Source: an uncultured Ruminococcus sp. | GTDB taxonomy: Bacteria; Bacillota; Clostridia; Oscillospirales; Ruminococcaceae | Assembly (NCBI GenBank): GCA_902787825.1 | Contig: CADAHS010000001.1 | Span: forward strand, 74,063-138,062 | Direction of reading: 5' to 3' | DNA: 64,000 bases | Shown: piece by piece, positions 49,637 through 63,521 of the stretch | How the letters are laid out: each line of letters starts with the position of its first letter | Numbering within the stretch: the first letter of the stretch is position 1 | The notes under the pieces: generated by a model | Told to the model about the DNA's origin: nothing | Seen by the model: only the letters and a program-made list of their open reading frames with translations | Databases searched by the model: none | Program-made: the position numbers and the translations under genes

Positions 49637-52600
49637 ATGATTGAAAATGATGCAAATTTAATCAAAATATCTCAAGCGCTGCTTGATGAATATGCGTGCG
49701 TATGCAGTGTTAATGTTGTAAACAACGAGTATCAGTGGTATTGGATAGATCCATCTCTCGATGCAATGCAAATAGAACCTGCTGGCACTGATTTCTTTAA
49801 AGACGTTGTCGGTTTTGTTGATCGTGTTGTTTATGAAGAAGATAGACAAGCACTTCTGGAAAACTTTAACGATAACAGCTTTCTTGAAAAACTAAGAAAT
49901 AATTCGGCATTAAACAATGTATTCAGACTTGTTATTGACGGCAGGCCTGTGTATCATTCGCTGCGTCTTATCAGAGATACCGGCGATGATCATTGTTTTA
50001 TTTTTGGTGCTGTTAATATTGATAAAGATTATCGCTGTAAGCTTGAGTCTGATAACGCTGTGAGTGAGCAGTCGTTATTTGACCAAATTGCAGAAAGTCT
50101 TGTGTCACATTATGATGTTATCTATTATGTAGATTTTAAAAGCAACTATTACACTAAATATGTTTCTAAAAATATTTATGGTAGTTTTGATATCAACTCA
50201 GCAGGAGATGACTTCTTTGAAGAAGCCAGGCAAAATGGTGCTCAGCTTATTCACCCTAAAGACAGGGATAGGATCCTTAATGTGCTTGAAAAAGAATATC
50301 TTATTGCTGTACTTGAAGACAGAAAACGTTACATTACCGAATACCGCTTGATAGTTGATGGTAAAACACAGCACACCAGAATGACAGTGATGTGGTCAAG
50401 CGATAAGATCCACATTATTATAGGTGTGGAAAATATCAATGAACAGGTAAGAAAAGAAAAAGAACAGTTCAGAGCTATGAGTATGGCTAATGAACTCGCA
50501 AGATGTGATGAGCTTACAGGTGTTAAGAATAAAAAGGCATATCATGAGCTGGAGGAATCGGTTAACAGCAATATCTCCAACGGACTTGATTATCTGCCGT
50601 TTGCGATAGTCGTTTGCGATGTAAATGATCTGAAGCGTGTGAATGATACTCAAGGCAGCAAATCCGGCGACGAATATATACGTTCTGCATGCCGTTTCAT
50701 ATGTAATACCTTTAAACATTCACAGGTCTTTCGTATCGGAGGAGATGAGTTTGTCGCTTTTTTAGGAAGCGGCGACTTCTATACAAGAGAAGACCTTGTG
50801 CAGAAATTCAAAAGTATTGTATTCAATAATATAAAAAACGGTGAGGGCGCTGTAGTTGCAATCGGAATGTCTGTTTTCGATCCGGCGACCGATAAAAATG
50901 TGATAGATGTTTTTGAACGTGCAGACAGCGAAATGAAATTAAATAAGGCAAAACTGAAGTCATATTATAATAATTCAGATGATACGCCATATCTGCACAG
51001 AATAGATGTTACTATCCCGCCTGAAAGGAAAAAATTCTTAGAGGGCCTGTTTAATGCGTTTTCTGTTATCACTGAAGGAACATATGTGTATCTTTGCGAT
51101 ATGAAATATGACTATTCTATATGGTCTAAGGCTGCTGTTGATACATTCGGACTGCCTTCTGAGCATATGTACCGTGCAGGAGATATCTGGGAGGAACATA
51201 TTCATCCCGATGACAGAGCAACTTATCATCGTGGTATCAATGATATATTTACCGGAAATGCGGCTGGACACGATATGCAGTACAGAGCAAGACGTCTTAA
51301 CGGAAAGTATGATGTGTGCACCTGTCGTGGTATAGTGCTGAGAGATCAGAACGGCGATCTTGATTATTTTGGCGGTTCGATAAGAAATCACGGCTTGCAG
51401 GGACAAGCAGATGCACTCACAGGTCTCAGAAATCTGTACGGCTTCTTTGAAGATCTCCAGTCGTATATGAATAAGAATACCAGTATAAGTGTTTGTCTTG
51501 TAGGTATCAGTAAGTTTTCCGAAATAAATGAGATCTATGGATATCATTTCGGAAACAGAGTGCTTCAGGGGTTTGGAAGATTCCTCTTTGAACATGTTGG
51601 AAATCTGGGAAGTGTTTATCGCCTTGACGGTACTAAATTTGCTGTGTTAAGCAACAGTCAGACTGTTGAGGATATTAAAGAAAAATATGAGGACCTTCGT
51701 GAGTATTTCAGAGAGAAATTTGTTGTTGAAAACAAAAATATTATTCTTGATCTTAACTGTGGATTGTTGTGTGTTGATAATTTTGATATTGACTATCAGA
51801 CAGTCTATGCGTGTCTCAACTACTCATACAGTGAGTCAAAACTGCGTAAACACGGGGAAATCGTAGAGTTCAGCAATGATATAAATGATGAGAATAAGCA
51901 TATTATTGAAAAACTCCATGTTATAAGAGATTCTATTATGCGGGATTACAAGGGCTTTTTCCTGCTGTATCAGCCGGTTGTCGATGCACAGACAGAAAAG
52001 CTTGTTGGAGCAGAAGCTTTGCTCAGATGGCGAAATGACGAATATGGTACTGTTCCGCCGGACAGTTTTATTCCTGTGCTTGAACGTGACCCGCTATTTC
52101 CTGAACTTGGTGAGTGGATAATTCGTACAGCAATAAAAGCGGCTAAGAGGATAATGCAGTACTATCCGGATTTTATTATTAATGTCAATCTGTCGTATAG
52201 CCAGCTTGAAAAACCGGAATTTGTGGAAACGGTGCTGAATATTCTGAGAAAAGAGAATTTCCCGCCAAATCACCTTTGCCTTGAGATCACTGAAAGATGT
52301 AGGCTGCTCAATATGGATCTGCTGAAAAATATTGTTGTAAATCTGCGTGGCAGAGGGGTGCTTATGGCACTTGACGACTTTGGTACAGGATTTTCTTCAG
52401 TCGGACTTGTTAAAAATCTTGAGTTTGATGTTATCAAGATCGACAGAAGCTTCGTCCTAAAGATCGAGGAAGACGAAAAGGAGAGAAAGCTTATAGAACA
52501 CTTCGTAGGTCTTGGCTCGATTTTTGGAGCAAGCATATGTGTTGAGGGCATTGAAACCTCACAAATGCGTGATGTTCTCAAAAAATATGGCGTTAGCGGA

Positions 52601-52672
52601 TTCCAGGGATATTATTATTCAAAGCCAATTTTGATCGATGATCTGCTAAAGTGGAAAGATCCGGATAAATAA
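49637..52672 (+). CDS. Diguanylate cyclase/phosphodiesterase: 2x sensor-GGDEF-PAS-degenerate GGDEF-EAL
   Basis: Intact RIGGDEF; PAS-like HIHPDDR; second GGDEF-like domain reads RLDGTKF; intact EAL motifs (AEALLRW, EITE, DDFGTG, IKID, EGIE, QGYYYSKP). Confidence 0.93.
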   Translation: MIENDANLIKISQALLDEYACVCSVNVVNNEYQWYWIDPSLDAMQIEPAGTDFFKDVVGFVDRVVYEEDRQALLENFNDNSFLEKLRNNSALNNVFRLVIDGRPVYHSLRLIRDTGDDHCFIFGAVNIDKDYRCKLESDNAVSEQSLFDQIAESLVSHYDVIYYVDFKSNYYTKYVSKNIYGSFDINSAGDDFFEEARQNGAQLIHPKDRDRILNVLEKEYLIAVLEDRKRYITEYRLIVDGKTQHTRMTVMWSSDKIHIIIGVENINEQVRKEKEQFRAMSMANELARCDELTGVKNKKAYHELEESVNSNISNGLDYLPFAIVVCDVNDLKRVNDTQGSKSGDEYIRSACRFICNTFKHSQVFRIGGDEFVAFLGSGDFYTREDLVQKFKSIVFNNIKNGEGAVVAIGMSVFDPATDKNVIDVFERADSEMKLNKAKLKSYYNNSDDTPYLHRIDVTIPPERKKFLEGLFNAFSVITEGTYVYLCDMKYDYSIWSKAAVDTFGLPSEHMYRAGDIWEEHIHPDDRATYHRGINDIFTGNAAGHDMQYRARRLNGKYDVCTCRGIVLRDQNGDLDYFGGSIRNHGLQGQADALTGLRNLYGFFEDLQSYMNKNTSISVCLVGISKFSEINEIYGYHFGNRVLQGFGRFLFEHVGNLGSVYRLDGTKFAVLSNSQTVEDIKEKYEDLREYFREKFVVENKNIILDLNCGLLCVDNFDIDYQTVYACLNYSYSESKLRKHGEIVEFSNDINDENKHIIEKLHVIRDSIMRDYKGFFLLYQPVVDAQTEKLVGAEALLRWRNDEYGTVPPDSFIPVLERDPLFPELGEWIIRTAIKAAKRIMQYYPDFIINVNLSYSQLEKPEFVETVLNILRKENFPPNHLCLEITERCRLLNMDLLKNIVVNLRGRGVLMALDDFGTGFSSVGLVKNLEFDVIKIDRSFVLKIEEDEKERKLIEHFVGLGSIFGASICVEGIETSQMRDVLKKYGVSGFQGYYYSKPILIDDLLKWKDPDK

Positions 52673-52766: not shown

Positions 52767-52838
52767 GCAGATATAGTATAGCGGTCATTACTCCAGTTTC
52801 CCAAACTGGTGATGCGGGTTCGACTCCCGTTATCTGCT
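52767..52838 (+). tRNA. tRNA-Gly(CCC)
   Basis: Acceptor GCAGATA/TATCTGC, anticodon stem CCAGT/ACTGG with loop TTCCCAA, T-loop GTTCGACT; promoter TTGAAA(52727)-17-TATACT(52750). Confidence 0.95.
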
Positions 52839-53071: not shown

Positions 53072-53869
53072 TTAGTTGCTTCCAGGACCGTCTACGTTAA
53101 ATGTAAGTGTAATGCCTTCTGCTGTCTTGCCAACGATCTTTGTAAGGTTAGATGTCTTAACAGCTGTAACATCACCGTCATAGTATACATATACATCAAC
53201 GTCTATAACATTGTCACCTGAAATTGTATTTGCAAGTACTACTGTACCGGTTGCATTTGCCTCGAATTTCTGGAAACCTGTTGCAGTAGCTACAACTACA
53301 CGAGTAGGATCGCCTTCGATACCGTCTGTAAGGTTAGAAAGATCAACCTTAAGGTTTGTAGCATCTTCTGAATCTTCTGCCAGACAGATATGAAGTGTCT
53401 TCTTCAGAACTCTTTCAGAGAAAATTGTGGTGGTATCTGTTGCACTCTTAGGAGTTGTTTCGTTGAATTCAACCTTAGTTCCGGTCTTGAGAGTACCGTC
53501 ATCGTATCCGGTACCTTCACCAAAATACCAGTTATTAGCTGTTGTCGGATTTACAGAAGGGTTAACCTCTGAAGTGCCATCTTTTGCAAGTGCTGCAGGA
53601 TACAGTTCTGCACTGTTGCTTGCAGCAGCAAATGTTACACTGGTCTTATTCTCTGTTCTGATGTCAGATGCGGTAGAATACTGCTCACTGATAAGTAAGT
53701 AGGTCGTATCAGCCTTAGCAGTGATGTTAAGTGTCTGAGCAGTAACATTTTTGTTCAGTGAGAACCATGCGAAGGTTGACGAAACGAGCATTGCTGCTGA
53801 AACTGTGAGCATTCCTACTGCCGATAACAGTTTCATCTTGTTTCCGTGTTTCTTCTTTGTATTAGTCAT
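53072..53869 (-). CDS. Secreted SipW-dependent protein (TasA/camelysin-like fibre subunit candidate)
   Basis: Basic N-terminus, hydrophobic core, SSTFA|WF cleavage motif of SipW-cognate signal peptides; Thr/Ala/Asn-rich beta-type mature domain. Start ATG 53869 after GGAAAGGGG. Confidence 0.8.
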   Translation of the reverse strand: MTNTKKKHGNKMKLLSAVGMLTVSAAMLVSSTFAWFSLNKNVTAQTLNITAKADTTYLLISEQYSTASDIRTENKTSVTFAAASNSAELYPAALAKDGTSEVNPSVNPTTANNWYFGEGTGYDDGTLKTGTKVEFNETTPKSATDTTTIFSERVLKKTLHICLAEDSEDATNLKVDLSNLTDGIEGDPTRVVVATATGFQKFEANATGTVVLANTISGDNVIDVDVYVYYDGDVTAVKTSNLTKIVGKTAEGITLTFNVDGPGSN

Positions 53870-53988
53870 AATAAATTCCCCTTTCCAAGAATTTAATTTA
53901 CTGTGACCTGTGTTTATAGCCGAAACCAAGGTCACCGTTCCTCTTTAGGAAACCCAATAATAAATAGTTTTCCGTTTCCTTGAATTAA

Positions 53989-54017
53989 AGTATACACAAC
54001 TTGTGCTAATTTGTCAA
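53989..54017 (-). promoter_or_regulatory. Sigma-A-type promoter of the TasA-like gene
   Basis: Minus strand TTGACA(54017-54012)-17-TATACT(53994-53989), TG upstream of the -10. Confidence 0.8.
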
Positions 54018-54205
54018 TAGTTTCAGTGTAATTAGTTTATTTAACAAAACAAATTTGGAGAAAGTATACTTGTTCGGTTCTTGTTTTTGTGCAAAAAGTC
54101 TAAAAAACGTTTTCGTGAGTTGTTGCTTGTGTTTGATTTGTTTAAATCTATCGACTAATTCTTCCTAAAAATATCGTATTTTCGTGATATTTGTTCTTAA
54201 TTCGC

Positions 54206-54234
54206 TTGACAAAAGAAACAAAATATCGTATAAT
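54206..54234 (+). promoter_or_regulatory. Consensus sigma-A promoter of the EAL*-sipW-AAA operon
   Basis: TTGACA(54206)-17-TATAAT(54229). Confidence 0.85.
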
Positions 54235-54278: not shown

Positions 54279-55070
54279 GTGATAGGATTGAAGCTGAAAA
54301 ATAATGCGACCGTCGGCGGCTTGCGTGCTTTGGAACAGTACTTTCGTCCTATCGGTAACGTGCTCTCCGGTGAAACGATCGCTTTGCAGACTGCTTTTCG
54401 CATGAATAGTCCCTCAAGAGGGGTTATTTTTCCCAACGAGTATCTTCCTGTCCTGGAAGCCTATCCGGATCGTGCCGCAGATTTTATGCCACTTATATTC
54501 TACCATTTATATGATGCTATTGAAAATTTCAAGAAAAGAGATATTGAATGCAGGTTTATTACTCTGCCAATGCCGGTAAGCTTTCTTAAACGTGCTGATG
54601 CAGTTACGGGTACTGTAGAGCTTGCAAAGGCTTTTCATATCCACTCCGACAACATCTGCTTTGAGCTTTCTTCGGCATTGTACGGCGAAACGGACGATAC
54701 AGCGTCAAAGGCAATGTTTGCATTGCAAAGAGAGGGCTTCACGTTTATGCTCAACTCTTTCGGCGGTGAGGATAGTCCGACGATGCTGCTGTCGAGCTTT
54801 CCGGTAGACTATGTTATGATAAATGGTCTTTATACTACCGAGGCGATGCTTGGCGAACGCCACGAAGGCTGGGTAAGATCAGCTTTGAGCTATATTACGA
54901 GTCTGAACTGCTCTGCTATTGCTACTGAGGTCGTTAATTCGGCGCAGGGAGATAAACTCTCCTCACTTGGATGCAGCTATTGTGTGGGTGATTATACCGG
55001 AGATTGGGTCCAGAGAAAATATGTAAGACTTAGAACAGGAGACGAGCAAGACGATAATCAGCAGGAATAA
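54279..55070 (+). CDS. Stand-alone degenerate EAL-domain protein
   Basis: EAL-like layout (YFRPI...RG.I.P.EY.PV.E...FELS...PVDYVMIN) with EAL->QTA, DDFG->NSFG, QGY->VGD. Start GTG 54279 or TTG 54288. Confidence 0.75.
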   Translation: MIGLKLKNNATVGGLRALEQYFRPIGNVLSGETIALQTAFRMNSPSRGVIFPNEYLPVLEAYPDRAADFMPLIFYHLYDAIENFKKRDIECRFITLPMPVSFLKRADAVTGTVELAKAFHIHSDNICFELSSALYGETDDTASKAMFALQREGFTFMLNSFGGEDSPTMLLSSFPVDYVMINGLYTTEAMLGERHEGWVRSALSYITSLNCSAIATEVVNSAQGDKLSSLGCSYCVGDYTGDWVQRKYVRLRTGDEQDDNQQE

Positions 55071-55123
55071 TTCTTTATATAATATAATGATACAAGTTTT
55101 GCGGAAAGGAGGTATATCTGCTT

Positions 55124-55942
55124 ATGAGTAAGAAGAAAAAAGAAGCTAAGCAGCAGGCTGAACTTGAAAACCAGCAGCTTGATGAAAGCACTGAAGCAGC
55201 TGTGAAATCAAGTTCCGATGACAAGGAGAAGGAACAAGCTCTCAGAGATGTCCTGCATATAAGGCGTACAGCTAAGGAAGTTAAGCGGTATACTATCCTG
55301 ATGCGAGTTACAGGACTTATAGCTGTGGCTCTGATAGCGCTGATAGCGATAGGATATGCAATAGCTTATTTTTATAACAAATACGGAAGCTTTACTATTA
55401 AGGTCAACAAATATGATATGGTCAACCAGGGACTTTCACTTTCTGAAACACCCGAATTTGACAGGACCATTTCAGTATTGACCGCTGATATCGTCTATGA
55501 TATGACCAACATCAGCGGAAATGATCTTCCTGAAAATATAGACAAAGTCAACGGAAACCATAACGGCAGGAATTATATCGCCTATACATTCTATGTGCAT
55601 AACTCAGGTAAGGATACAATAACATATGAAGGCGATCTTACTATTGAAAATGTAACTAAGAACGTTGACGAGGCTATCCGTGTGGCTGTTTATACCAATG
55701 GTGAGAAGCAGGTCTATGGTAAGACAAAGTCTAATGGAAGCGGTAAGGAAAGTGACTGCGATAAGGAATTCCTGACCAGTACTCAGGTGATGCATACAAA
55801 CGTTACTGACTTTGAACCGGGCGATACGACCAAATACACTGTGGTTATCTGGCTCGAAGGAAATGACCCTGACTGTGTTGATTCGATAATCGGTGGTGTC
55901 ATAAAAATGCAGATGGATTTCAGGATCGTAGAGAATACGTAA
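55124..55942 (+). CDS. Single-TM protein with extracellular TasA/camelysin-like domain
   Basis: Charged N-terminal region, TM ending YAIA-YF, YTFYVHNSG and YTVVIWLEGND motifs; GGAGG RBS. Confidence 0.7.
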   Translation: MSKKKKEAKQQAELENQQLDESTEAAVKSSSDDKEKEQALRDVLHIRRTAKEVKRYTILMRVTGLIAVALIALIAIGYAIAYFYNKYGSFTIKVNKYDMVNQGLSLSETPEFDRTISVLTADIVYDMTNISGNDLPENIDKVNGNHNGRNYIAYTFYVHNSGKDTITYEGDLTIENVTKNVDEAIRVAVYTNGEKQVYGKTKSNGSGKESDCDKEFLTSTQVMHTNVTDFEPGDTTKYTVVIWLEGNDPDCVDSIIGGVIKMQMDFRIVENT

Positions 55943-55962
55943 GAATTAAGGGGAGAAAATTT

Positions 55963-56664
55963 ATGAAAAAAGCGTTGAAAATTGCAGGCAGTGTTCTTGC
56001 GTGGATCTTGCTGATATTTGCTCTGCTGATTACTATAATGGTTTTTACCTCGGATAAGAACAACGGCGTTCCGAGCCTTTTCGGACGAATGCCGATGACT
56101 GTTGAGTCTGCGTCAATGGAACCTACCTTCAAGGAGGGCGACCTGATCATTTCAAAGGAGATCGACGATATCAACGATCTTAAAGTTGATGATGTTATCT
56201 CTTTCTGGACAAATGAGATCGTTGAAGGACAAAATGTTGTCAATACCCACCGAATTGTTGAGATAAAAGACGATAACGGAACAAAAGCTTTTGTTACAAA
56301 GGGTGATAACAACGAAAACAATGACTCTTATCTGGTTTATCCGAGTAAGATAGTTGGAAAGTGGACAGGCACAAGGCTCGGCGGAGTCGGAAAAATATTA
56401 AAATTCCTAAAGACAAAAACCGGATTTCTTGTATGTATCCTGATCCCGATGGCGATATTCTTCCTGTTTGAGCTGTTTAAGCTTATAATGGTCATCGTTC
56501 AGATGAAACAGCCTGCAAAGCTTACAGAAAATGATGAAGAAGAGATCAAGAAAAGAGCGATCGAGGAGTATCTTGCAGAGCAGCAAAAGCTTAAAGAAAA
56601 TCAGCCGCAGCAGGATCCCCCGCAGCAGACTCAGCAACAGACATCGACTGATAATGCAGAGTAG
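55963..56664 (+). CDS. sipW: Signal peptidase I, SipW (ER/archaeal-type), copy 1
   Basis: VESASMEPT (Ser), GD, NTHRIV (His), TKGDNN..ND; N- and C-terminal TM segments. Confidence 0.9.
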   Translation: MKKALKIAGSVLAWILLIFALLITIMVFTSDKNNGVPSLFGRMPMTVESASMEPTFKEGDLIISKEIDDINDLKVDDVISFWTNEIVEGQNVVNTHRIVEIKDDNGTKAFVTKGDNNENNDSYLVYPSKIVGKWTGTRLGGVGKILKFLKTKTGFLVCILIPMAIFFLFELFKLIMVIVQMKQPAKLTENDEEEIKKRAIEEYLAEQQKLKENQPQQDPPQQTQQQTSTDNAE

Positions 56665-56708
56665 TTTGACTGCCCTGTAAATCCGATAGAAAGGAAAACA
56701 AGGAAAAC

Positions 56709-58283
56709 ATGAGTAACTTTTTGGATTGGTTCTTTGTTTTTATTTCTGAAATTCTTAAAGGCTTTGCAAGTATATTCAAAGGATTTTGGGAAGGTATAAA
56801 GCAAATTTTCAATATCAAGAATTATATCAACATTTTCAAGGCTCATTCCGAAAGCTTCGGTGTGCTGGAGTGGATACTTGCGATCTTGTCGATAATTCTT
56901 GTTATGGCTATTTTCCTGCTTATCATTTTCATGATAGTGCTGGCAATAAGAAAATACATTCGTTTCAGGCATTCGCTTGTCAGCGATGAGGATCTGCTCG
57001 AGGAGATCGGTGTTCTTCAGCGCCAGGTCATTAAAATGACTAAGGAAAAGGACGAAATTATGGCGATGAAGGTCGCTCAGATGGGCGGCGGTCCTATGGC
57101 TCTTTCAGGAGCAATGGGTGGAACGCTGTCGCTCGGAGACGGCGAGACAGGAGAACAGCCTCAGGGAGAAGAACAGACACAGGAAGGCGTTGTTGTTACG
57201 ACTGTCAAACGTTTCTCCAAGCTTATCGAAGTGGACAACTTCTACAAAACTTATACTCCGCCAGAATATGACAATAACTGTACGCTTGAGCAGATTTGTG
57301 AGGATTACAGAAACTTTGCCTGCTCCAGAATGCATCTGTTTTACGATATAAAGACAATACGTCTGTTTATCGCAGGTATGGCTTCAACAAAGCTGATAAT
57401 CCTTCAGGGTATCTCAGGTACAGGTAAAACATCACTTCCGTATTCGTTCGGTAAGTTCCTCGGCGTTGATACGACCATTGCTTCCGTTCAGCCTTCGTGG
57501 CGAGACAGAACCGAGCTTTTCGGTTTCTTTAACGAATTCACCAAGAACTTTAACGAAACAGAAGTACTTAAAAGAATTTATGCATCAAGCTTCAATAATG
57601 ATGTAAACTTTATCCTCCTTGATGAAATGAACATCGCAAGAGTTGAGTATTACTTCGCTGAGATGCTGTCCATACTTGAAATGCCTAACGCAGACGAGTG
57701 GAAGCTCGACCTCGTTCCTAATGTATGGAGCACTGACCCTGAAAACCTTGACAAGGGTATGATCAAGATACCGCAGAATGTATGGTACATTGGTACAGCC
57801 AATAACGACGACTCAACATTTGCGATCTCTGATAAGGTTTACGACCGTGCTCAGCCTATCAACCTCGATGCAAAGGGTATTGCATTTGATGCGCCTGATA
57901 CGCCGCCGATGTGCCTGGGATATGATCATCTCAATGACCTGTTTGAGGAAGCTTTCAAGAAGTATCCTATCAGTGATGAAAACCTCAAGAAGATACAGCA
58001 TCTGGATCTGTGGGTAATTGAAAAACTCCGTGTGGCTTTTGGTAACCGTATTATCAAGCAGATGGGTCTGTTTGTCCCTGTTTACGTTGCCTGCGGCGGA
58101 GATGAACTTGATGGAATCGACTATGTGATGGCTACCAAGATCTTCAGAAAGTTTGAATCTCTCAACCTTTCAATGCTTCGTGACGAGCTGAAGGATCTGT
58201 GTACATACCTTAAAAAGACCTTTGGTGCAAACAGCATGAAGGAATCCATCGCATACCTCGAACGTCTGCAAAAGCTTTATTAA
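56709..58283 (+). CDS. Membrane-anchored McrB-family AAA+ NTPase
   Basis: Amphipathic helix, TM and coiled coil, then GISGTGKT (Walker A), LLDEMNIARVEYYF (Walker B), GTANNDD (NxxD), SDKVYDRA, FGNR. Confidence 0.85.
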   Translation: MSNFLDWFFVFISEILKGFASIFKGFWEGIKQIFNIKNYINIFKAHSESFGVLEWILAILSIILVMAIFLLIIFMIVLAIRKYIRFRHSLVSDEDLLEEIGVLQRQVIKMTKEKDEIMAMKVAQMGGGPMALSGAMGGTLSLGDGETGEQPQGEEQTQEGVVVTTVKRFSKLIEVDNFYKTYTPPEYDNNCTLEQICEDYRNFACSRMHLFYDIKTIRLFIAGMASTKLIILQGISGTGKTSLPYSFGKFLGVDTTIASVQPSWRDRTELFGFFNEFTKNFNETEVLKRIYASSFNNDVNFILLDEMNIARVEYYFAEMLSILEMPNADEWKLDLVPNVWSTDPENLDKGMIKIPQNVWYIGTANNDDSTFAISDKVYDRAQPINLDAKGIAFDAPDTPPMCLGYDHLNDLFEEAFKKYPISDENLKKIQHLDLWVIEKLRVAFGNRIIKQMGLFVPVYVACGGDELDGIDYVMATKIFRKFESLNLSMLRDELKDLCTYLKKTFGANSMKESIAYLERLQKLY

Positions 58284-58294
58284 TAATACCTAAT

Positions 58295-58331
58295 GACCTG
58301 CCTTGCCATTAGCCAACGGGCAAGTCAGGTC
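58295..58331 (+). other. Intercistronic stem-loop
   Basis: GACCTG-CTTGCC / GGCAAG-CAGGTC pairing, followed by GCTTTT. Confidence 0.6.
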
Positions 58332-58425
58332 GCTTTTATATGTTTGATCCTATAATGATATGAATTCAGCTAACGATTGCTTATAAAAGAGTTATCTATT
58401 AATTTTTCTGAAAGGAGGGGAATGT

Positions 58426-60573
58426 GTGGACGAGTTTTATGACAAGTGGTATTCCAATTTTACTCAGACTATGGACGGTATGGAAGATAACGAGCTGTTC
58501 GATGCTATGCATTCCCTGATAATGTCAAGTAAGAACACCTTTGCCGTCAACCGCAAAATAATGGAAAAATCTGTTGACGTTTCGTGGGTAGATGCTATTG
58601 AGGAGGGTCTGAAGCACCTTGATACGGTGCTCAGAACACCGAGAGTTACTATCGAGGATGTTGGAGAGGTCGTTCCGATCGCACTTTCAAGAAAGATCAC
58701 AGTTGAATCTGTAAAGCATCTTGCTCAGCATACCGATCTTATTCAGGACTACGACCCTGTCACAAATACTATCACTCCTTCAAAAGTACTTAATGTACAT
58801 AAGGAGGAGAGTATGATGACCTATGAGAATAAGTTTATCAATACCCTCGTTGACAGGTTGTATGTGTTTATTATCAGACGATATGAAAAGCTTCAGGAGG
58901 TAGCTAAAGACGAAGAAGTGTTCTCTCTTTCCTATAATACCGATGTTGACGATAAAATGGGAAAGCAGATGAGCGTCAGCTTGAAGCTTGAAACTACCGA
59001 CAGTCTTGAAACTGTCAACGAAAGTGGTCTTACTGTCTGGGAAAGAGTTGAACACCTGAAAAAAGCCGTTGAAGGCTATAAAGGATCAAACTTCTGCCAG
59101 GCAATGGGCAATGTCTATATAAGACCGCCTGTAATGAGAACTAATGCTATCATGAAAAACGTGGACCTTAAAGCCTGCCTTACACTCTGGCAGTTCATCG
59201 AGGGCTACGATAAAGTCGGATATGAGATAAACGTTGTTGATACAGCTCAGAAGCTTGACGAGGACTATATGATGGATTTCTATAACCTTGTTGCTCTGAA
59301 TTTTCTGCTTTTCCGTTCGTATACTCATAAACCGACTAAAAAGGCAAATGAACTAAAAACCGCAAAATCTAAGGCGTTTCTCCCTAAGTTCCTTAAAAGG
59401 TTCAATAAGGATGATATGTCAAAATATGATGTTATGGCTCAGCCGCAAAGCCTTGGTGAAACAGTATATGACCACCAGGGAGAAGCTGGCGAGCTGAATA
59501 TCGGTCTGCTTAATGAGATCGACCAGGTCTTTGCTCTTGAAAAGGAGTATATCCGTGTTGAGCGTATCAGGACAGAGGTCGAGCGAATTGAACGTGAAAA
59601 GGCTGAAAAGAAGCGAGCGGAGGCAGAAGAAAGACGTCTCGAAGCTTTGCGTCGTGAGGCGATCAAGAAAGCTGAAGCGGAAAAAGCAGAGCGTGAGCGG
59701 ATACAGCGTGAAGAAGCTGAGCGGCTTAAAAAGGAATGGGAAGAAAGACAGCGTGCTGAAGCCGAAGAACGTGAAAGGCTTGCTAAGGAAGCAGCTGAGC
59801 GTGCTGAAAGAGAAAGACAGGAAGCCGAAGAGCGCAAGCAGCGTGAATATGATAACTTCCGCCGTGCTCAGCTTACTGCCGAGAGAATTGAGCAGGAGCG
59901 TATCAAAGCCGAGGAAGAAGCAAAACGTCTTGCAGAGGAGGAGGCAAATCTTACTCCGGAGCAGATCGCAGAAAGAGAGCGTCTGAGTGCAGAAAAGCTT
60001 GCTAAGGAAAAGCGGGAAAAGATTCGTGCAGACAGACTCCGTGAGGAAAGAGAGATCTACCGCAACAGAGATTTCCATACAATATATCTGGAATACTCAA
60101 GAAGTCCTTGGTGCGTGATAAGAAGATTCTTTATCACACTGTGGTGCGTGATCTTCCGCAAGCCTTATGTTCCTGATGTAGATCCTAAGTATTACAGAGC
60201 CGAATATCCCAAAAAGCATTGGCTCGAAAGACCTATGGAAACAGCTGCCGAGCGTGACGAGCGTCTGCAGATGAAGGTCTACTATAATAAATACGCTACT
60301 ATGTTCCCTTATGACTTCAAACGGTTCATTAAAGATATCAAGTGGAAGATGAAGAAGAAAAAACCGCTTACTGATGCACAGAAGCAGAAGATCAGACAAT
60401 CACTGCCTGTTATGACTCCGGAAGAGGTGAACGCAGAAAATGCTCGGATCAAGGCTTTGTTCAAGGAGTATCATGTAAGTGTGTTCACCAAGATAAAGAG
60501 AAAGTTCAAAGAGTGGCGTGAAGATAAGAAACTAAAGAATGAAAGGGTCAATGAAGAAGATGATAAAAAGTAA
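58426..60573 (+). CDS. DUF2357 (McrC N-terminal-like) protein with long E/R/A/K coiled coil and no recognisable nuclease domain
   Basis: TYENKFI motif and MRTNAIMKN..LKACL.LW segment; charged helix about 59539-60060; AAGGAGG RBS before GTG. Confidence 0.7.
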   Translation: MDEFYDKWYSNFTQTMDGMEDNELFDAMHSLIMSSKNTFAVNRKIMEKSVDVSWVDAIEEGLKHLDTVLRTPRVTIEDVGEVVPIALSRKITVESVKHLAQHTDLIQDYDPVTNTITPSKVLNVHKEESMMTYENKFINTLVDRLYVFIIRRYEKLQEVAKDEEVFSLSYNTDVDDKMGKQMSVSLKLETTDSLETVNESGLTVWERVEHLKKAVEGYKGSNFCQAMGNVYIRPPVMRTNAIMKNVDLKACLTLWQFIEGYDKVGYEINVVDTAQKLDEDYMMDFYNLVALNFLLFRSYTHKPTKKANELKTAKSKAFLPKFLKRFNKDDMSKYDVMAQPQSLGETVYDHQGEAGELNIGLLNEIDQVFALEKEYIRVERIRTEVERIEREKAEKKRAEAEERRLEALRREAIKKAEAEKAERERIQREEAERLKKEWEERQRAEAEERERLAKEAAERAERERQEAEERKQREYDNFRRAQLTAERIEQERIKAEEEAKRLAEEEANLTPEQIAERERLSAEKLAKEKREKIRADRLREEREIYRNRDFHTIYLEYSRSPWCVIRRFFITLWCVIFRKPYVPDVDPKYYRAEYPKKHWLERPMETAAERDERLQMKVYYNKYATMFPYDFKRFIKDIKWKMKKKKPLTDAQKQKIRQSLPVMTPEEVNAENARIKALFKEYHVSVFTKIKRKFKEWREDKKLKNERVNEEDDKK

Positions 60574-61279
60574 GCTCAAGCTTGCGGCAAAGATCACTCT
60601 GATCTCATTGATCGCAGTAATGTTTTTTATCGTTGTTTATGTTTTTGTTTGCAATATCCGTGGAAAGGTCGCAAGTATAGGCGGATACAGCATTATGAAA
60701 GTCCTTACAGGAAGCATGGAGCCGTCTATTCATGTGGACGATTATATCCTGATAAAGAAAACAGATGTTTCGCAGCTGGAAATAGGAGATGTCATAACAT
60801 TTTATTCTGACGATCCTCAGATCAAGGATATGCCTAATTCACATAGGATAATTGCTAAAAATAATGACGGCTCATTTACTGTTAAGGGAGATGCTAATCC
60901 TGTTGAAGACACCTATAAGGTCAGACCCGACAGAGTGATCGGAAAGTATGTCAGAAAGATCTGGATATTCCGGTTTATCGGCTCGTTTGCGTCATCAAGA
61001 AAACTGCTGATGATACTGTTTATCCTGCCTACAGTTTGTATCTGTATCTATGAATCAAGGACTCTTGTAAGGATAATCAGAGGAACTGACGGCGATGATG
61101 AGGATAATGACGATGAGGATAGTAACGATAATACTCTAAGTGATGAGCAAAAGAAACAAAAACTTATCCGTGAGGCTATTGAGAAGGAAAAGGAAAAGCT
61201 AAGACAGCAGGATAAGATCAATGAAAGTGAAGTGATAGTCAGTGGGTCAGGAAAAGATAATGAAAAGGAAGATGATTAG
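60551..61279 (+). CDS. sipW: Signal peptidase I, SipW, copy 2
   Basis: VLTGSMEPS (Ser), NSHRII (His), KGDANPVED; start overlaps the DUF2357 gene end. Confidence 0.9.
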   Translation: MKKMIKSKLKLAAKITLISLIAVMFFIVVYVFVCNIRGKVASIGGYSIMKVLTGSMEPSIHVDDYILIKKTDVSQLEIGDVITFYSDDPQIKDMPNSHRIIAKNNDGSFTVKGDANPVEDTYKVRPDRVIGKYVRKIWIFRFIGSFASSRKLLMILFILPTVCICIYESRTLVRIIRGTDGDDEDNDDEDSNDNTLSDEQKKQKLIREAIEKEKEKLRQQDKINESEVIVSGSGKDNEKEDD

Positions 61280-61700
61280 CGCTATAATCTGGTCGCTGAT
61301 ACTTCTCATTGCGTTGCTGGTGTTTATTGGTCTGTATATTGATAAGACTAAGGAAAACAAAGAAAGATACCGCACTCAATATAAAAACTGTATTTCTGAT
61401 GCAGCGGAGGAGATAGATACTTATCTTGACCGCAAGATAGACTATGATCTTCATTATAATATGGTGATCTCTTATCTGGGTTCGGCTCGGTCCTTCATTT
61501 TTCTGATGGAGGACGAAGAGATGACAGAGAAGCAAAAGTCGATAAATGAACTGCATTATTGTTTTGTCAAATACCCCGAACAGATGAAAACAAGACTCGA
61601 AGCTGTAAGCACCGCTTTAAAGGACGTGTACGATAATCTTGATAAAGGATACGATGAAATAAATGCCGTCGTTGATTCGGTAGATAAAATGGGTAAATAG
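61260..61700 (+). CDS. Hypothetical single-TM helical protein
   Basis: N-terminal TM (ISAIIWSLILLIALLVFIGLYI); overlaps the sipW2 stop. Confidence 0.75.
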   Translation: MKRKMISAIIWSLILLIALLVFIGLYIDKTKENKERYRTQYKNCISDAAEEIDTYLDRKIDYDLHYNMVISYLGSARSFIFLMEDEEMTEKQKSINELHYCFVKYPEQMKTRLEAVSTALKDVYDNLDKGYDEINAVVDSVDKMGK

Positions 61701-61715
61701 CAGGAGGGAAAGGCA

Positions 61716-61943
61716 ATGAGTGAAAAAAGAAAATATAAAAAGGAAATAATGAAATGCCGTAAGACTATCGAGGAGATCGAGCGAAAGCGTTCTCGTTCTC
61801 AGTCGGCGTTGGTGCAGGCTATCCTTCTTCAGGAGGAGCCGCAGGAAGCTGATGTTGAGTGGTTCAATAAGTATACAGGAGAGATAGATGCGGTCAGAAA
61901 GCATATGATAACTACTCAGAAAAAGCTTGATCTTATAAAATAG
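61716..61943 (+). CDS. Small coiled-coil hypothetical protein
   Basis: 75 aa, AGGAGG RBS, followed by a hairpin. Confidence 0.75.
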   Translation: MSEKRKYKKEIMKCRKTIEEIERKRSRSQSALVQAILLQEEPQEADVEWFNKYTGEIDAVRKHMITTQKKLDLIK

Positions 61944-61949
61944 CTCATA

Positions 61950-61979
61950 GACCACAGAGTGAATTTTTACTCTGTGGTC
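61950..61979 (+). terminator. Terminator/hairpin ending the operon
   Basis: GACCACAGAGT/ACTCTGTGGTC 11-bp perfect stem. Confidence 0.7.
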
Positions 61980-62109
61980 AAACTTTTTCAGCTTTTTTAT
62001 CTTTATTGTAAAAAAAGGCTTGACAAACAGAAACTATTTTGATATAATATATAAGCACTTGCAAATGACCGTTCGGGTAAAAACCGTAAAAGGCGGCTGT
62101 AAGCGTGAT

Positions 62110-62182
62110 GAGCTATTAGCTCAGTTGGCAGAGCATTTGACTTTTAATCAAAGGGTCTGGGGTTCGAATCCCCAATAGCTCA
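62110..62182 (+). tRNA. tRNA-Lys(TTT)
   Basis: Acceptor GAGCTAT/ATAGCTC, anticodon stem TTTGA/TCAAA with loop CTTTTAA, T-loop GTTCGAAT; promoter TTGACA(62020)-17-TATAAT(62043); terminator 62185-62213. Confidence 0.96.
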
Positions 62183-62312: not shown

Positions 62313-63521
62313 GTGATAATGATGAATGACCTGAATAAACTGCTTGTTGATGTTAAAACCCTTGTGATTTTTAAAAGTCTTAACCAAGATCCTGTTTTTA
62401 TAAAGCTTCTTGAAGCAATTAAAGCGTGCATAGAGGAAAACACAGATAACAGTATTGAAAAGTACTGTGATTTTGTGAGCGAGCTATATACATATTCAGA
62501 TGATCTGACAAGTTATATGCTCAAAATGGTGCTTGAAAATGAGAACCTCTTTATGCTGCGCAAAGGCGAGGGTAAAGCAACAGGAAGGCTGCTTGAAGAA
62601 TGTCTTGCAAGTGAGCTTGAAATAATTCAGGAGATATCCGAGATACCATCTTCCGAGATAATTTCAAAGATCAATTATGACGGCTTTTTGCCTGGGTACA
62701 AAACACAGAAAATTGATTTTTCACAGATCTACGCCGATAGGATCCACCAGATCAACAGGTACGGATACGGGATTTACTCGCAGTATCATGTGTTTGTTGT
62801 AGAAAACCGAAAGATCGTTCCTGTGGAATTTCCGGATCCTATCCGCATTCAACAGTTGTGCAACTATGAGCTTGAAAGGGAACAGGTAATTAAAAATACC
62901 CTTGCCCTTATCGCAGGAAAGCCTGCAAACAATGTGCTTTTGTATGGCGATTGCGGAACGGGGAAGTCATCAACTGTCAAAGCGATAGCGAATGAATATG
63001 CTTCACAGGGTCTCAGACTTATCGAGCTGAAAAAAAAGCAGCTTCATGAACTTCCGTCTATCGTTGAAACTGTCAGTAAGAATCCTCTTAAATTTATTAT
63101 TTTTATTGATGACCTTTCTTTCACCGAAGACGATGACGATTTTGCTGCTCTTAAAGCTATTCTTGAAGGAAGTGTTTCATCAAATGCCGCAAACCTTGCT
63201 ATCTATGCGACGTCAAATCGCCGACACCTTGTCAGAGAGACCTTCTCAGCCCGACAGGGAGATGAGATACATTTCAAGGATACTATGCAGGAGCTTTTAT
63301 CGCTGTCGGACAGATTCGGACTTACCGTAACATTCCAAAAGCCGGATAAGAAAACATTCCTCGAAGTCGTTTCAAGTCTTGCACAACAGTATGAGCTTGA
63401 TATGCCGCAGGACGAGCTTTATATGAAGGCTGAAGCATATGCACTTGCAAGGGGCGGACGCTCTCCGAGAGTTGCTAAACAGTTTGTTGAATATCTGAAA
63501 GGATGTGGAGATAATGCTTGA
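62313..63521 (+). CDS. DUF815 family AAA+ ATPase
   Basis: NNVLLYGDCGTGKSS, FIIFIDDLSF, LKAILEG, YATSNRRHLV, LSDRFG, RSPRVAKQF. Confidence 0.9.
   Translation: MIMMNDLNKLLVDVKTLVIFKSLNQDPVFIKLLEAIKACIEENTDNSIEKYCDFVSELYTYSDDLTSYMLKMVLENENLFMLRKGEGKATGRLLEECLASELEIIQEISEIPSSEIISKINYDGFLPGYKTQKIDFSQIYADRIHQINRYGYGIYSQYHVFVVENRKIVPVEFPDPIRIQQLCNYELEREQVIKNTLALIAGKPANNVLLYGDCGTGKSSTVKAIANEYASQGLRLIELKKKQLHELPSIVETVSKNPLKFIIFIDDLSFTEDDDDFAALKAILEGSVSSNAANLAIYATSNRRHLVRETFSARQGDEIHFKDTMQELLSLSDRFGLTVTFQKPDKKTFLEVVSSLAQQYELDMPQDELYMKAEAYALARGGRSPRVAKQFVEYLKGCGDNA

Follow-up and report, generated by a model that had tools for sequence, protein, structure and literature searches.

A membrane-anchored McrB-type AAA+ NTPase of the CoCoPALM class in a SipW signal peptidase operon of Ruminococcus

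The window analyzed here, i.e., the whole stretch of DNA under consideration, comprises 64,000 nucleotides (nt) from an uncultured Ruminococcus sp. (GenBank assembly GCA_902787825.1, contig CADAHS010000001.1, positions 74,063 to 138,062). It carries on its forward strand a gene (56709-58283) for a membrane-anchored McrB-type AAA+ nucleoside triphosphatase (NTPase) of 524 amino acids (aa), as concluded from the open reading frame (ORF) and its translation, a match to the PADLOC model PDC-M26A (1.5e-39) and an hhalign comparison with Escherichia coli McrB (96.5%). The gene starts with ATG, and a ribosome-binding site of the AGGA type is located just 5' of the ORF. It resides in a tight eight-gene operon extending from 54279 to 61943, in which the gaps range from 15 to 142 nt and two gene pairs overlap. 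The encoded proteins are, in this order, an EAL protein, a 272-aa protein, a first SipW-type signal peptidase, the AAA+ protein, a 715-aa DUF2357 protein, a second SipW-type peptidase, a 152-aa transmembrane (TM) protein and a 75-aa helical protein. The ORF had been singled out in a first-pass annotation made from the sequence without database searches, and all strings quoted there are present in the protein: ILAILSIILVMAIFLLIIFMIVLAI at residues 56-80 in the TM helix, EDLLEEIGVLQRQVIKMTKEKDEIMAMK at residues 94-121, GISGTGKT at residues 234-241, DEMNIARVEYYF at residues 305-316 and GTANNDDSTFAISDKVYDRA at residues 362-381. More than 8000 homologues were scored, and the protein is real and under selection. 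Its AlphaFold2 model, based on a 59-row alignment, has a mean predicted local distance difference test (pLDDT) value of 86.6, and the AAA+ fold, which begins near residue 160, is modeled with confidence. Among 105 cross-species homologues, identity amounts to 91% in the AAA core, 84% in the stalk, 81% in the lid, 69% in the amphipathic head, 59% in the TM helix and 26% in the linker.

The AAA+ module including its lid occupies residues 161-524 (57189-58280), as judged from motifs, PDB searches and Foldseek. The Walker A motif lies at 57408-57431, the Walker B/DExNxAR block with D305 and E306 at 57621-57656 and an N-x-D(D) signature with the accompanying arginine at 57792-57851, all on the forward strand. 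In an alignment of 59 sequences, G234, G237, G239, K240, D305, N308, R311, E313, Y315 and F316 are conserved without exception, and the same applies to T363, N365, D367, S369, T370 and R380. E306 is present in 58 of the 59, while position 368 is taken by aspartate in 52 sequences, by glutamate in five and by another residue in two. The signature T363-A-N365-N-D367-D-S-T corresponds in the alignment to MNTADRS...RR of E. coli McrB and is the N-x-D(D/E) variant of the McrB motif. Almost all of 144 representatives have it in the form T-A-N-x-D-[DE]-S-T.

Other tests were needed for the family assignment because Pfam did not yield any match for the protein at an E-value of 0.01; AAA_5 was marginal with E 0.15. 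In the PDB sequence set, E. coli McrB proved to be the sole significant match (phmmer, E 1e-3; alignment profile, E 2e-4). When the 59-sequence alignment was compared with E. coli McrB by hhalign, the match (E 7.9e-10) extended from Walker A to the arginine and covered 168 columns, whereas the comparison with E. coli RavA gave 4.8% and covered Walker A only. Foldseek ranked the McrB structures 6ut6/6hz4 first (E 2e-7) with MCM, MoxR-type proteins and dynein close behind, and the fold search alone therefore does not decide between McrB and MoxR. In principle, the protein could be a MoxR/RavA-type or generic AAA+ chaperone that merely resembles McrB, and the marginal AAA_5 match as well as the MoxR-type (2r44, CbbQ, NorQ), MCM and dynein structures following McrB in the Foldseek ranking can be cited in its favor. 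The hhalign values speak against this explanation, as do the PDB sequence searches, which returned no MoxR match, and the presence of McrB-specific motifs together with a DUF2357 partner. A VWA protein, the type of partner found with MoxR/RavA proteins, is not encoded in the locus. By all these sequence comparisons the module classifies as McrB-type and not as MoxR/RavA, and the McrB-type core recognized in the first-pass annotation was thus borne out, including a negative check for placement among MoxR/RavA proteins.

The part of the protein that precedes the AAA+ module can be divided into four segments. Residues 1-50 (56709-56858, forward strand) form three short amphipathic helices rich in aromatic residues, with the conserved pattern M-x-x-FL-x-WFF...IFNI...Y...FG..W. 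The helices span residues 2-24, 26-33 and 36-47 in the AlphaFold2 model, and the amphipathic N-terminal helix noted earlier is reflected in a hydrophobic moment of 0.47-0.65 over residues 1-35, where hydrophobicity as such is only moderate. Residues 52-80 (56862-56948) constitute a single, strongly hydrophobic TM helix, likewise noted earlier, with a 19-residue Kyte-Doolittle mean peaking at 3.3 over residues 55-80, and are followed by RKYIRFRH on the cytoplasmic side, a placement that draws on hydropathy and on the topology of relatives. The helix runs on into a highly conserved cytoplasmic stalk at residues 81-124 (56949-57080), so that residues 52-124 appear as one unbroken helix in the model. 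A flexible linker rich in glycine, glutamate and glutamine connects the stalk to the AAA+ module (residues 125-160, 57081-57188); pLDDT falls below 50 at residues 126-152, in agreement with the Gly-rich linker described from the sequence. The heptad segment proposed in the same place could not be substantiated: within residues 89-124, the hydrophobic enrichment at positions a and d in the best register was equalled by 3302 of 5000 shuffled sequences and does not exceed chance. The data for residues 81-124 support a long and conserved amphipathic helix, but not a canonical coiled coil.

The N-terminus is an uncleaved signal-anchor that leaves the NTPase on the cytoplasmic side, because a segment of 51 residues precedes the TM helix, the hydrophobic helix of 29 residues lacks a cleavage motif and its C-terminal flank is positively charged. 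A cleaved signal peptide was rejected on the same grounds and also because the NTPase needs cytoplasmic nucleotide. In relatives that are 52-57% identical in the AAA+ module, a true signal peptide stands first, followed by a beta-rich exodomain (about 190 aa), a linker rich in Pro and Thr, a TM helix, the sequence RRRKKK and then this module, which fixes the C-in orientation of the anchor. Residues 1-50 may then be located on the outer face, or helix 2-24 may form a weakly hydrophobic second span similar to that of relatives with two TM helices. In P0131 and P0133 (contig L022), the AAA+ module belongs to a membrane protein of type I whose head is exposed at the surface; the exodomains and long N-termini of the relatives did not produce any Pfam match. 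A DNA- or RNA-binding domain was not found in the AAA+ protein with Pfam, NCBIfam or the Atlas. Neither of the two outcomes named earlier as arguing against a membrane anchor, i.e., a cleaved signal and a nucleic-acid-binding fold, is therefore indicated by the N-terminus and the topology of its relatives.

The long helix following the anchor also bears on a possible kinship with the cell-division proteins FtsB and DivIC, which would have to be considered alongside the MoxR-type explanation. The coiled coil of FtsB is periplasmic, whereas the helix following the TM segment in the window protein must be cytoplasmic. Pfam did not match the AAA+ protein to DivIC/FtsB, and in an Atlas search with residues 1-130 the best scores were about 0.5, which is uninformative, and FtsB/DivIC were not matched. 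On the other side stands the N-terminal FtsB homology reported for the class to which we assign the protein below (Bell et al., eLife 2024, PMC11090510). Taking all of these observations together, we consider it very improbable that the protein is a MoxR/RavA-type or generic AAA+ chaperone or an FtsB/DivIC-like cell-division factor.

The gene immediately downstream of the AAA+ gene (58426-60573, forward strand) encodes an McrC-like partner of 715 aa, consisting of a DUF2357 N-domain, a putative helix of about 170 aa rich in glutamate, arginine, lysine and alanine and a basic/aromatic tail. Its translation starts with GTG, with AGGAGG 7 nt upstream. The DUF2357 domain was detected as PF09823 (8e-7, 29 bits compared with a cut-off of 23.3), in line with the proposed pairing of the AAA+ protein with a DUF2357 partner, and the charged helix was read from the composition of the translation. 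Searches of Pfam, PADLOC, NCBIfam and PDB did not reveal a nuclease or any other further domain in the partner, nor did the protein have a relative in PDB. The two genes are separated by an unusually long gap of 142 nt (58284-58425) containing a hairpin (58290-58312) without a T-run behind it on the forward strand, possibly a site of processing or attenuation. With a hidden Markov model of the partner, the downstream gene was also matched in 4-TM, exodomain-bearing and TM-less relatives. On the contigs of the 2-TM, 4-TM and exodomain relatives, which are 2.8-3.3 kb long, an McrC-like gene lies downstream in two of three cases, and no SipW gene is present within that reach.

The McrC-like gene shares 35 nt, read in a different frame, with the gene for the second SipW-type signal peptidase I (60539-61279, forward strand; TIGR02228, 5.2e-25, 88.1 bits compared with a cut-off of 51.85). 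The corresponding regions were compared between the window (58426-61279) and two related loci (L001:9662-12613 and L015:11592-14119). The two genes are separate in L015 as well, and there too they overlap in different frames. In three other Ruminococcus loci (L001, L003 and L014), the McrC-like protein has a length of 983 aa, and blastp/tblastn identified its residues 766-982 as the second SipW peptidase. A homologue search revealed that separate and fused forms are both common in the genus: the shorter proteins (about 715-750 aa) contain PF09823 alone, and homologues of 970-1040 aa include fusions of PF09823 with PF10502, some of them annotated as 'signal peptidase I [Ruminococcus albus]'. 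Fusion or fission of the McrC-like and SipW proteins has thus happened inside one genus, and the fusion is the strongest evidence presented here that the McrBC-like pair acts together with the peptidase.

When compared with McrBC of E. coli (PDB 6hz4, 6ut6, 7vsr), the window proteins share the Walker A motif, the DExNxA block, the Asn/Asp signature, the arginine and the position of the partner gene directly downstream. They differ in several respects. A membrane anchor stands in place of the N-terminal DNA-reading domain, the signature is N-x-D(D/E) and not N-x-x-D, the partner has neither a detectable PD-(D/E)xK nuclease nor detectable similarity to E. coli McrC, and the genomic context consists of secretion and surface genes instead of restriction genes. 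The claim in the first-pass annotation that the specificity domain had been replaced is to be read as a comparison with canonical McrB. A canonical McrBC restriction enzyme was rejected as an identification, given an N-terminus made up of amphipathic helices and a TM segment and a partner without nuclease match.

To place the protein among its relatives, 5805 matches at E-values up to 1e-10 were collected from 1.84 billion cluster representatives. Among the best 150 representatives, at least one TM helix precedes Walker A in 84 (one in 26, two in 13 and three or more in 45), and 53 have TM-less N-termini of at least 300 residues. One TM-less relative adjoins Upf1-like helicases, as is also the case for CoCoNuT systems. 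A rapid maximum-likelihood tree built from 131 AAA+ modules required only two changes between the TM and TM-less states, compared with a mean of 42.3 after shuffling, and none of 500 shuffles gave a value as low. The window protein falls into a well-supported set of 32 members, all of which bear TM helices. These counts and the tree identify membrane anchoring as the rule in this branch and not as a peculiarity of the window gene. The novelty implied by the first-pass annotation was therefore overstated, the more so as the clade was named CoCoPALM in 2024 (PMC11090510).

Bell et al. (eLife 2024, PMC11090510) devote one paragraph to CoCoPALM, report no experiments on it and defer its analysis to a later paper. 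They describe an McrB GTPase with an NxD signature, usually followed by D or E, that is fused to a TM segment and an FtsB-like coiled coil and associated with the signal peptidase family, with a long coiled-coil-like helix on the McrC homologue as well, and they place the clade among CoCoNuT-like systems. The window protein resembles this description in being an NxD-variant McrB GTPase with a TM segment and a long helix; the McrC homologue, for which a long charged helix is suggested by composition, the associated gene of the signal peptidase family and the occurrence in Bacillota agree as well, and there is no difference in kind. Within the library searched, we did not find any other paper that uses the name CoCoPALM or ties DUF2357 to signal peptidases. 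The protein is a member of this previously published class, with an identity that is firm and a function that we infer from its setting, and we hold it highly probable that identity and architecture are those of a CoCoPALM NTPase subunit. What our analysis adds to the description of the class is a conserved amphipathic module ahead of the TM helix, the C-in topology and the lack of significant heptad periodicity, furthermore the fusion or fission of McrC-like and SipW proteins in one genus, a near-core conservation similar to that of FtsH, and the fixed neighborhood of an EAL gene and exported beta-rich proteins. The label 'FtsB-like' was not reproduced, and the helix concerned lies in the cytoplasm, inverted relative to that of FtsB.

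The closest AAA+ proteins outside the TM clade are those of CoCoNuT (CnuB/CnuC) and of the PADLOC candidate PDC-M26, with about 40-45% identity. They share the T-A-N-x-D-[DE]-S-T signature and a long helical N-terminal extension, but the CoCoNuT-like forms are TM-less, have N-termini of 300 and more residues and helicase or nuclease neighbors, and are separated from the TM-bearing forms in the tree. Identification as CoCoNuT (CnuB) was rejected in view of the TM segment of the window protein, its position among exclusively TM-bearing proteins in the tree and an operon without nuclease or helicase.

A stand-alone EAL protein of 263 aa heads the operon (54279-55070, forward strand; PF00563, 1.3e-23), a position that is kept in congeners. 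It is followed by the gene for the 272-aa protein (55124-55942, forward strand), which comprises a charged cytoplasmic head, a TM helix and an extracytoplasmic beta-rich domain, is 67% identical in congeners and is probably a SipW client or an anchor subunit. The Atlas model of a near match to this protein resembles a 'SipW-cognate class signal peptide family' cluster (TM-score 0.84-0.86), which we treat as a lead only. The first SipW-type (archaeal/ER-type) signal peptidase I is encoded at 55963-56664 on the forward strand (TIGR02228, 3e-28, 98.7 bits compared with 51.85; SipW model, 6.5e-36), and the SMEP, HR and GDN motifs are visible in both SipW peptidases. The operon closes with the genes for the 152-aa TM protein (61242-61700) and the 75-aa helical protein (61716-61943), also on the forward strand, which have the same order and 53% and 79% identity, respectively, in congeners. 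The 75-aa protein is basic and helical, as conserved as the AAA+ protein (79%) and without a family match. Upstream of the EAL gene and transcribed divergently from it lies the gene for a secreted protein of 287 aa (53072-53935, reverse strand) with the signal ...SSTFA|WF, recognized from its translation and by the Atlas and probably representing the major exported subunit. By its Atlas structure, it is similar to the CPF_0494 'alternate signal-mediated exported protein' cluster (TM-score 0.61-0.65), again a lead only.

A promoter match of the sigma-70 type, TTGACA-17-TATAAT, precedes the EAL gene at 54206-54234 on the forward strand and is a match to the consensus only, at 12 of 12 positions. 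An intrinsic-terminator-like hairpin of 13 pairs follows the last gene directly (61950-61979, forward strand). Contigs from bovine-gut metatranscriptomes, 95-100% identical to the window, cover the operon thinly, including positions 57629-58056 within the AAA+ gene. In four bovine-gut runs, word depth was 18-46 over the divergent 287-aa gene and its leader (53528-54155, reverse strand), compared with 0-6 over the operon. The high depth fits an abundant structural subunit. As for the operon, these contigs show its presence in RNA libraries and fall short of proving co-transcription.

A dedicated SipW-type peptidase next to exported beta-rich clients is reminiscent of tapA-sipW-tasA of Bacillus subtilis and other SipW fiber operons. 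The window locus differs from these in that two peptidases bracket an McrBC-like pair and in that membership of the clients in TasA (Peptidase_M73) finds no match in Pfam or NCBIfam. To our knowledge, SipW-dependent fiber operons of the tapA-sipW-tasA type do not contain an NTPase.

Considering architecture and context together, we lean slightly towards the interpretation that the AAA+ protein is the NTPase subunit of a membrane-located, McrBC-derived motor coupled to SipW-dependent biogenesis of a surface fiber; for the role in fiber biogenesis taken by itself, the arguments for and against appear about evenly balanced. By analogy to McrBC, six AAA+ copies would form a ring underneath the membrane, and the N-domain of the McrC-like partner would plug this ring and switch on the hydrolysis of GTP or another nucleoside triphosphate. 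The context suggests that the nucleotide cycle might be transmitted via the long helix of the partner and the membrane-embedded peptidase or peptidases, and that it could gate or power the processing, release or polymerization of SipW-dependent exported subunits into a surface fiber or coat. The EAL protein may place the system under the control of cyclic di-GMP (c-di-GMP). The first-pass annotation had proposed a membrane-bound NTPase acting at the membrane or on proteins. Its general direction is backed by the anchor and the genomic context, while the function itself is putative. Judged by its context, the protein is more likely to act at the membrane or on proteins than on modified DNA: no nuclease was detected, two SipW peptidases flank the pair, partner and peptidase are fused in congeners and the operon encodes exported beta-rich proteins.

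Distribution and conservation of the AAA+ gene allow a membrane-sited defense system to be weighed against the fiber-related motor. In such an anti-phage or anti-plasmid system, an McrB/McrC sensor would act via its anchor or the peptidases, in the manner of abortive infection, and not via a nuclease. The best library match, PADLOC PDC-M26A (1.5e-39), is indeed a defense-candidate model, TM-less sister forms adjoin Upf1-like helicases as CoCoNuTs do, and CoCoPALM has been grouped with CoCoNuT-like systems by Bell et al. (PMC11090510). In addition, tRNA genes flank the locus, the flanking genes vary between species and serine recombinases lie upstream in one relative. However, the PADLOC match spans the AAA+ core only and no other gene of the locus matches PADLOC, and a nuclease or another known effector was not detected; specifically, the operon encodes neither nuclease nor helicase. 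The genome of the window has a single copy of the AAA+ gene. Of 39 species of the genus, 34 carry it in one copy, as do 26 of the 29 genomes of high quality. In three congeners the AAA+ protein is 77-78% identical, compared with 77-79% for FtsH, 67% for PriA and 79-89% for GlmS; in a different genus the value is 45%, compared with 60% for FtsH, 47% for PriA and 50% for GlmS. This core-gene-like conservation, which tracks genome distance, argues against a defense function, as does the 91% identity of the AAA core across species.

Most other proteins of the locus are less conserved, with identities in congeners of 67% for the 272-aa protein, 59% for the first SipW peptidase, 56% for the N-terminal part of the McrC-like protein and 35% for the EAL protein. 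The AAA+ protein is the best-conserved large protein of the locus, and the 75-aa terminal protein alone matches it. Synteny is held in the Ruminococcus loci L001-L003, and the order SipW, AAA+, McrC-like, ..., SipW persists in another genus at 45% identity. The pattern is that of a vertically inherited and strongly constrained gene, unlike a shuffled defense gene. A horizontally acquired island was rejected on the basis of GC content, core-gene-like conservation and the lack of mobile-element genes; neither a GC anomaly nor such genes were detected in the window. The absence of a compositional island and the fixed synteny with the EAL gene and exported beta-rich proteins likewise speak against a defense function. 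A role in defense is possible, but it fits distribution and context poorly and we consider it improbable.

A further alternative takes the linker and the EAL gene as its point of departure. Here, the protein would be a membrane-tethered regulatory switch: the ring, through its nucleotide state, would determine how active the SipW peptidases are or where they are located, or it would report the state of the envelope or of c-di-GMP, without any part in assembly. In favor of this view, the connection between stalk and AAA+ module is flexible and poorly conserved, as befits a tether more than a rigid drive shaft. The first gene of the operon encodes an EAL protein, GGDEF/EAL genes are located in the vicinity both here and in relatives, and some relatives bear an extracytoplasmic domain on the same chain in a receptor-like manner. 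This has to be set against the invariance of all catalytic residues of hydrolyzing McrB and the retention of the stimulatory partner. Moreover, rings of the McrB family are hydrolysis-driven machines. The data are compatible with a switch as well as with a motor, and we rate a pure switch as unlikely, though less so than defense. Note that a PAS-GGDEF-EAL protein of 1011 aa is encoded just upstream of the locus (49637-52672, forward strand) and that the locus of a relative has a GGDEF gene downstream, a c-di-GMP theme in both cases. A c-di-GMP riboswitch or any other Rfam element was not found in the window, where three tRNAs alone were detected.

Several observations weigh against coupling of an McrBC-derived motor to SipW-dependent fiber biogenesis, as preferred here. 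The partner alignment gave 0.25% in hhalign against E. coli McrC, i.e., no similarity, and the N-domain of the partner was poorly modeled by AlphaFold2 (15-row alignment, pLDDT 60.5) and returned nothing below E 0.1 in the PDB fold search, an outcome that carries no meaning with such a model. Because the N-domain has neither a fold match nor similarity to E. coli McrC, the McrC-likeness depends on one Pfam match of 29 bits and on gene order. A complex prediction with two copies of the AAA+ region (residues 165-524) and residues 1-270 of the partner scored 0.00, which does not support binding, yet is no evidence against it either. The likeness of the exported proteins to TasA stems from Atlas look-alikes only, Pfam and NCBIfam giving no match. 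The RNA evidence is thin, as the contigs are strandless, DNA carry-over was not controlled for and depth is a poor measure. Across the family, the AAA+ gene occurs in just three of 150 other genomes (150 genera, that of the window counted) and is thus lineage-restricted. Finally, the nearest characterized or proposed relatives, McrBC, CoCoNuT and PADLOC PDC-M26A, are defense systems, and the literature did not yield an experiment on any member of the class.

Should the fiber-related motor prove correct, its significance would reach beyond this locus. McrBC is a textbook GTP-dependent restriction enzyme, and a branch of it that has given up reading as well as cutting DNA, has moved to the membrane and has become a slowly evolving, near-core component of a surface-protein operon would represent a defense motor in cell-biological use. 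Fibers of the SipW/TasA type are thought to require no energy source outside the cell, and a cytoplasmic NTPase wired to the peptidase would alter this picture for many rumen and gut Firmicutes, in which such fibers could matter for adhesion to plant fiber or host. In its most far-reaching form, the proposal is that the McrB-like ring and McrC-like plug constitute a GTP-driven transmembrane mechanotransducer, in which hydrolysis in the cytoplasm would shift the long helix of the partner and the peptidase fused or bound to it and thereby drive or gate cleavage and polymerization of SipW-dependent subunits outside the cell. This would be an unrecognized type of fiber-assembly engine, derived from the motor of a restriction enzyme and near-core in rumen and gut Clostridia; this we put forward as tentative and rather doubtful. 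With eight genes, one promoter and one terminator, the locus in any case provides a compact and well-defined example of CoCoPALM.

The remainder of the window is ordinary chromosome, with genes for PriA, FtsH, GlmS, PcrA, RsmB, a PASTA kinase and FeoB. The locus is enclosed by tRNA genes on either side (52767-52838 and 62110-62182). Its flanking genes differ from species to species, and in L003 two serine recombinase genes are located upstream. Further downstream in the window, a gene for a DUF815-type AAA ATPase (62313-63521, forward strand; PF05673, 4.6e-89) is preceded by a perfect promoter match of its own (62020-62048) and is probably unrelated to the operon.

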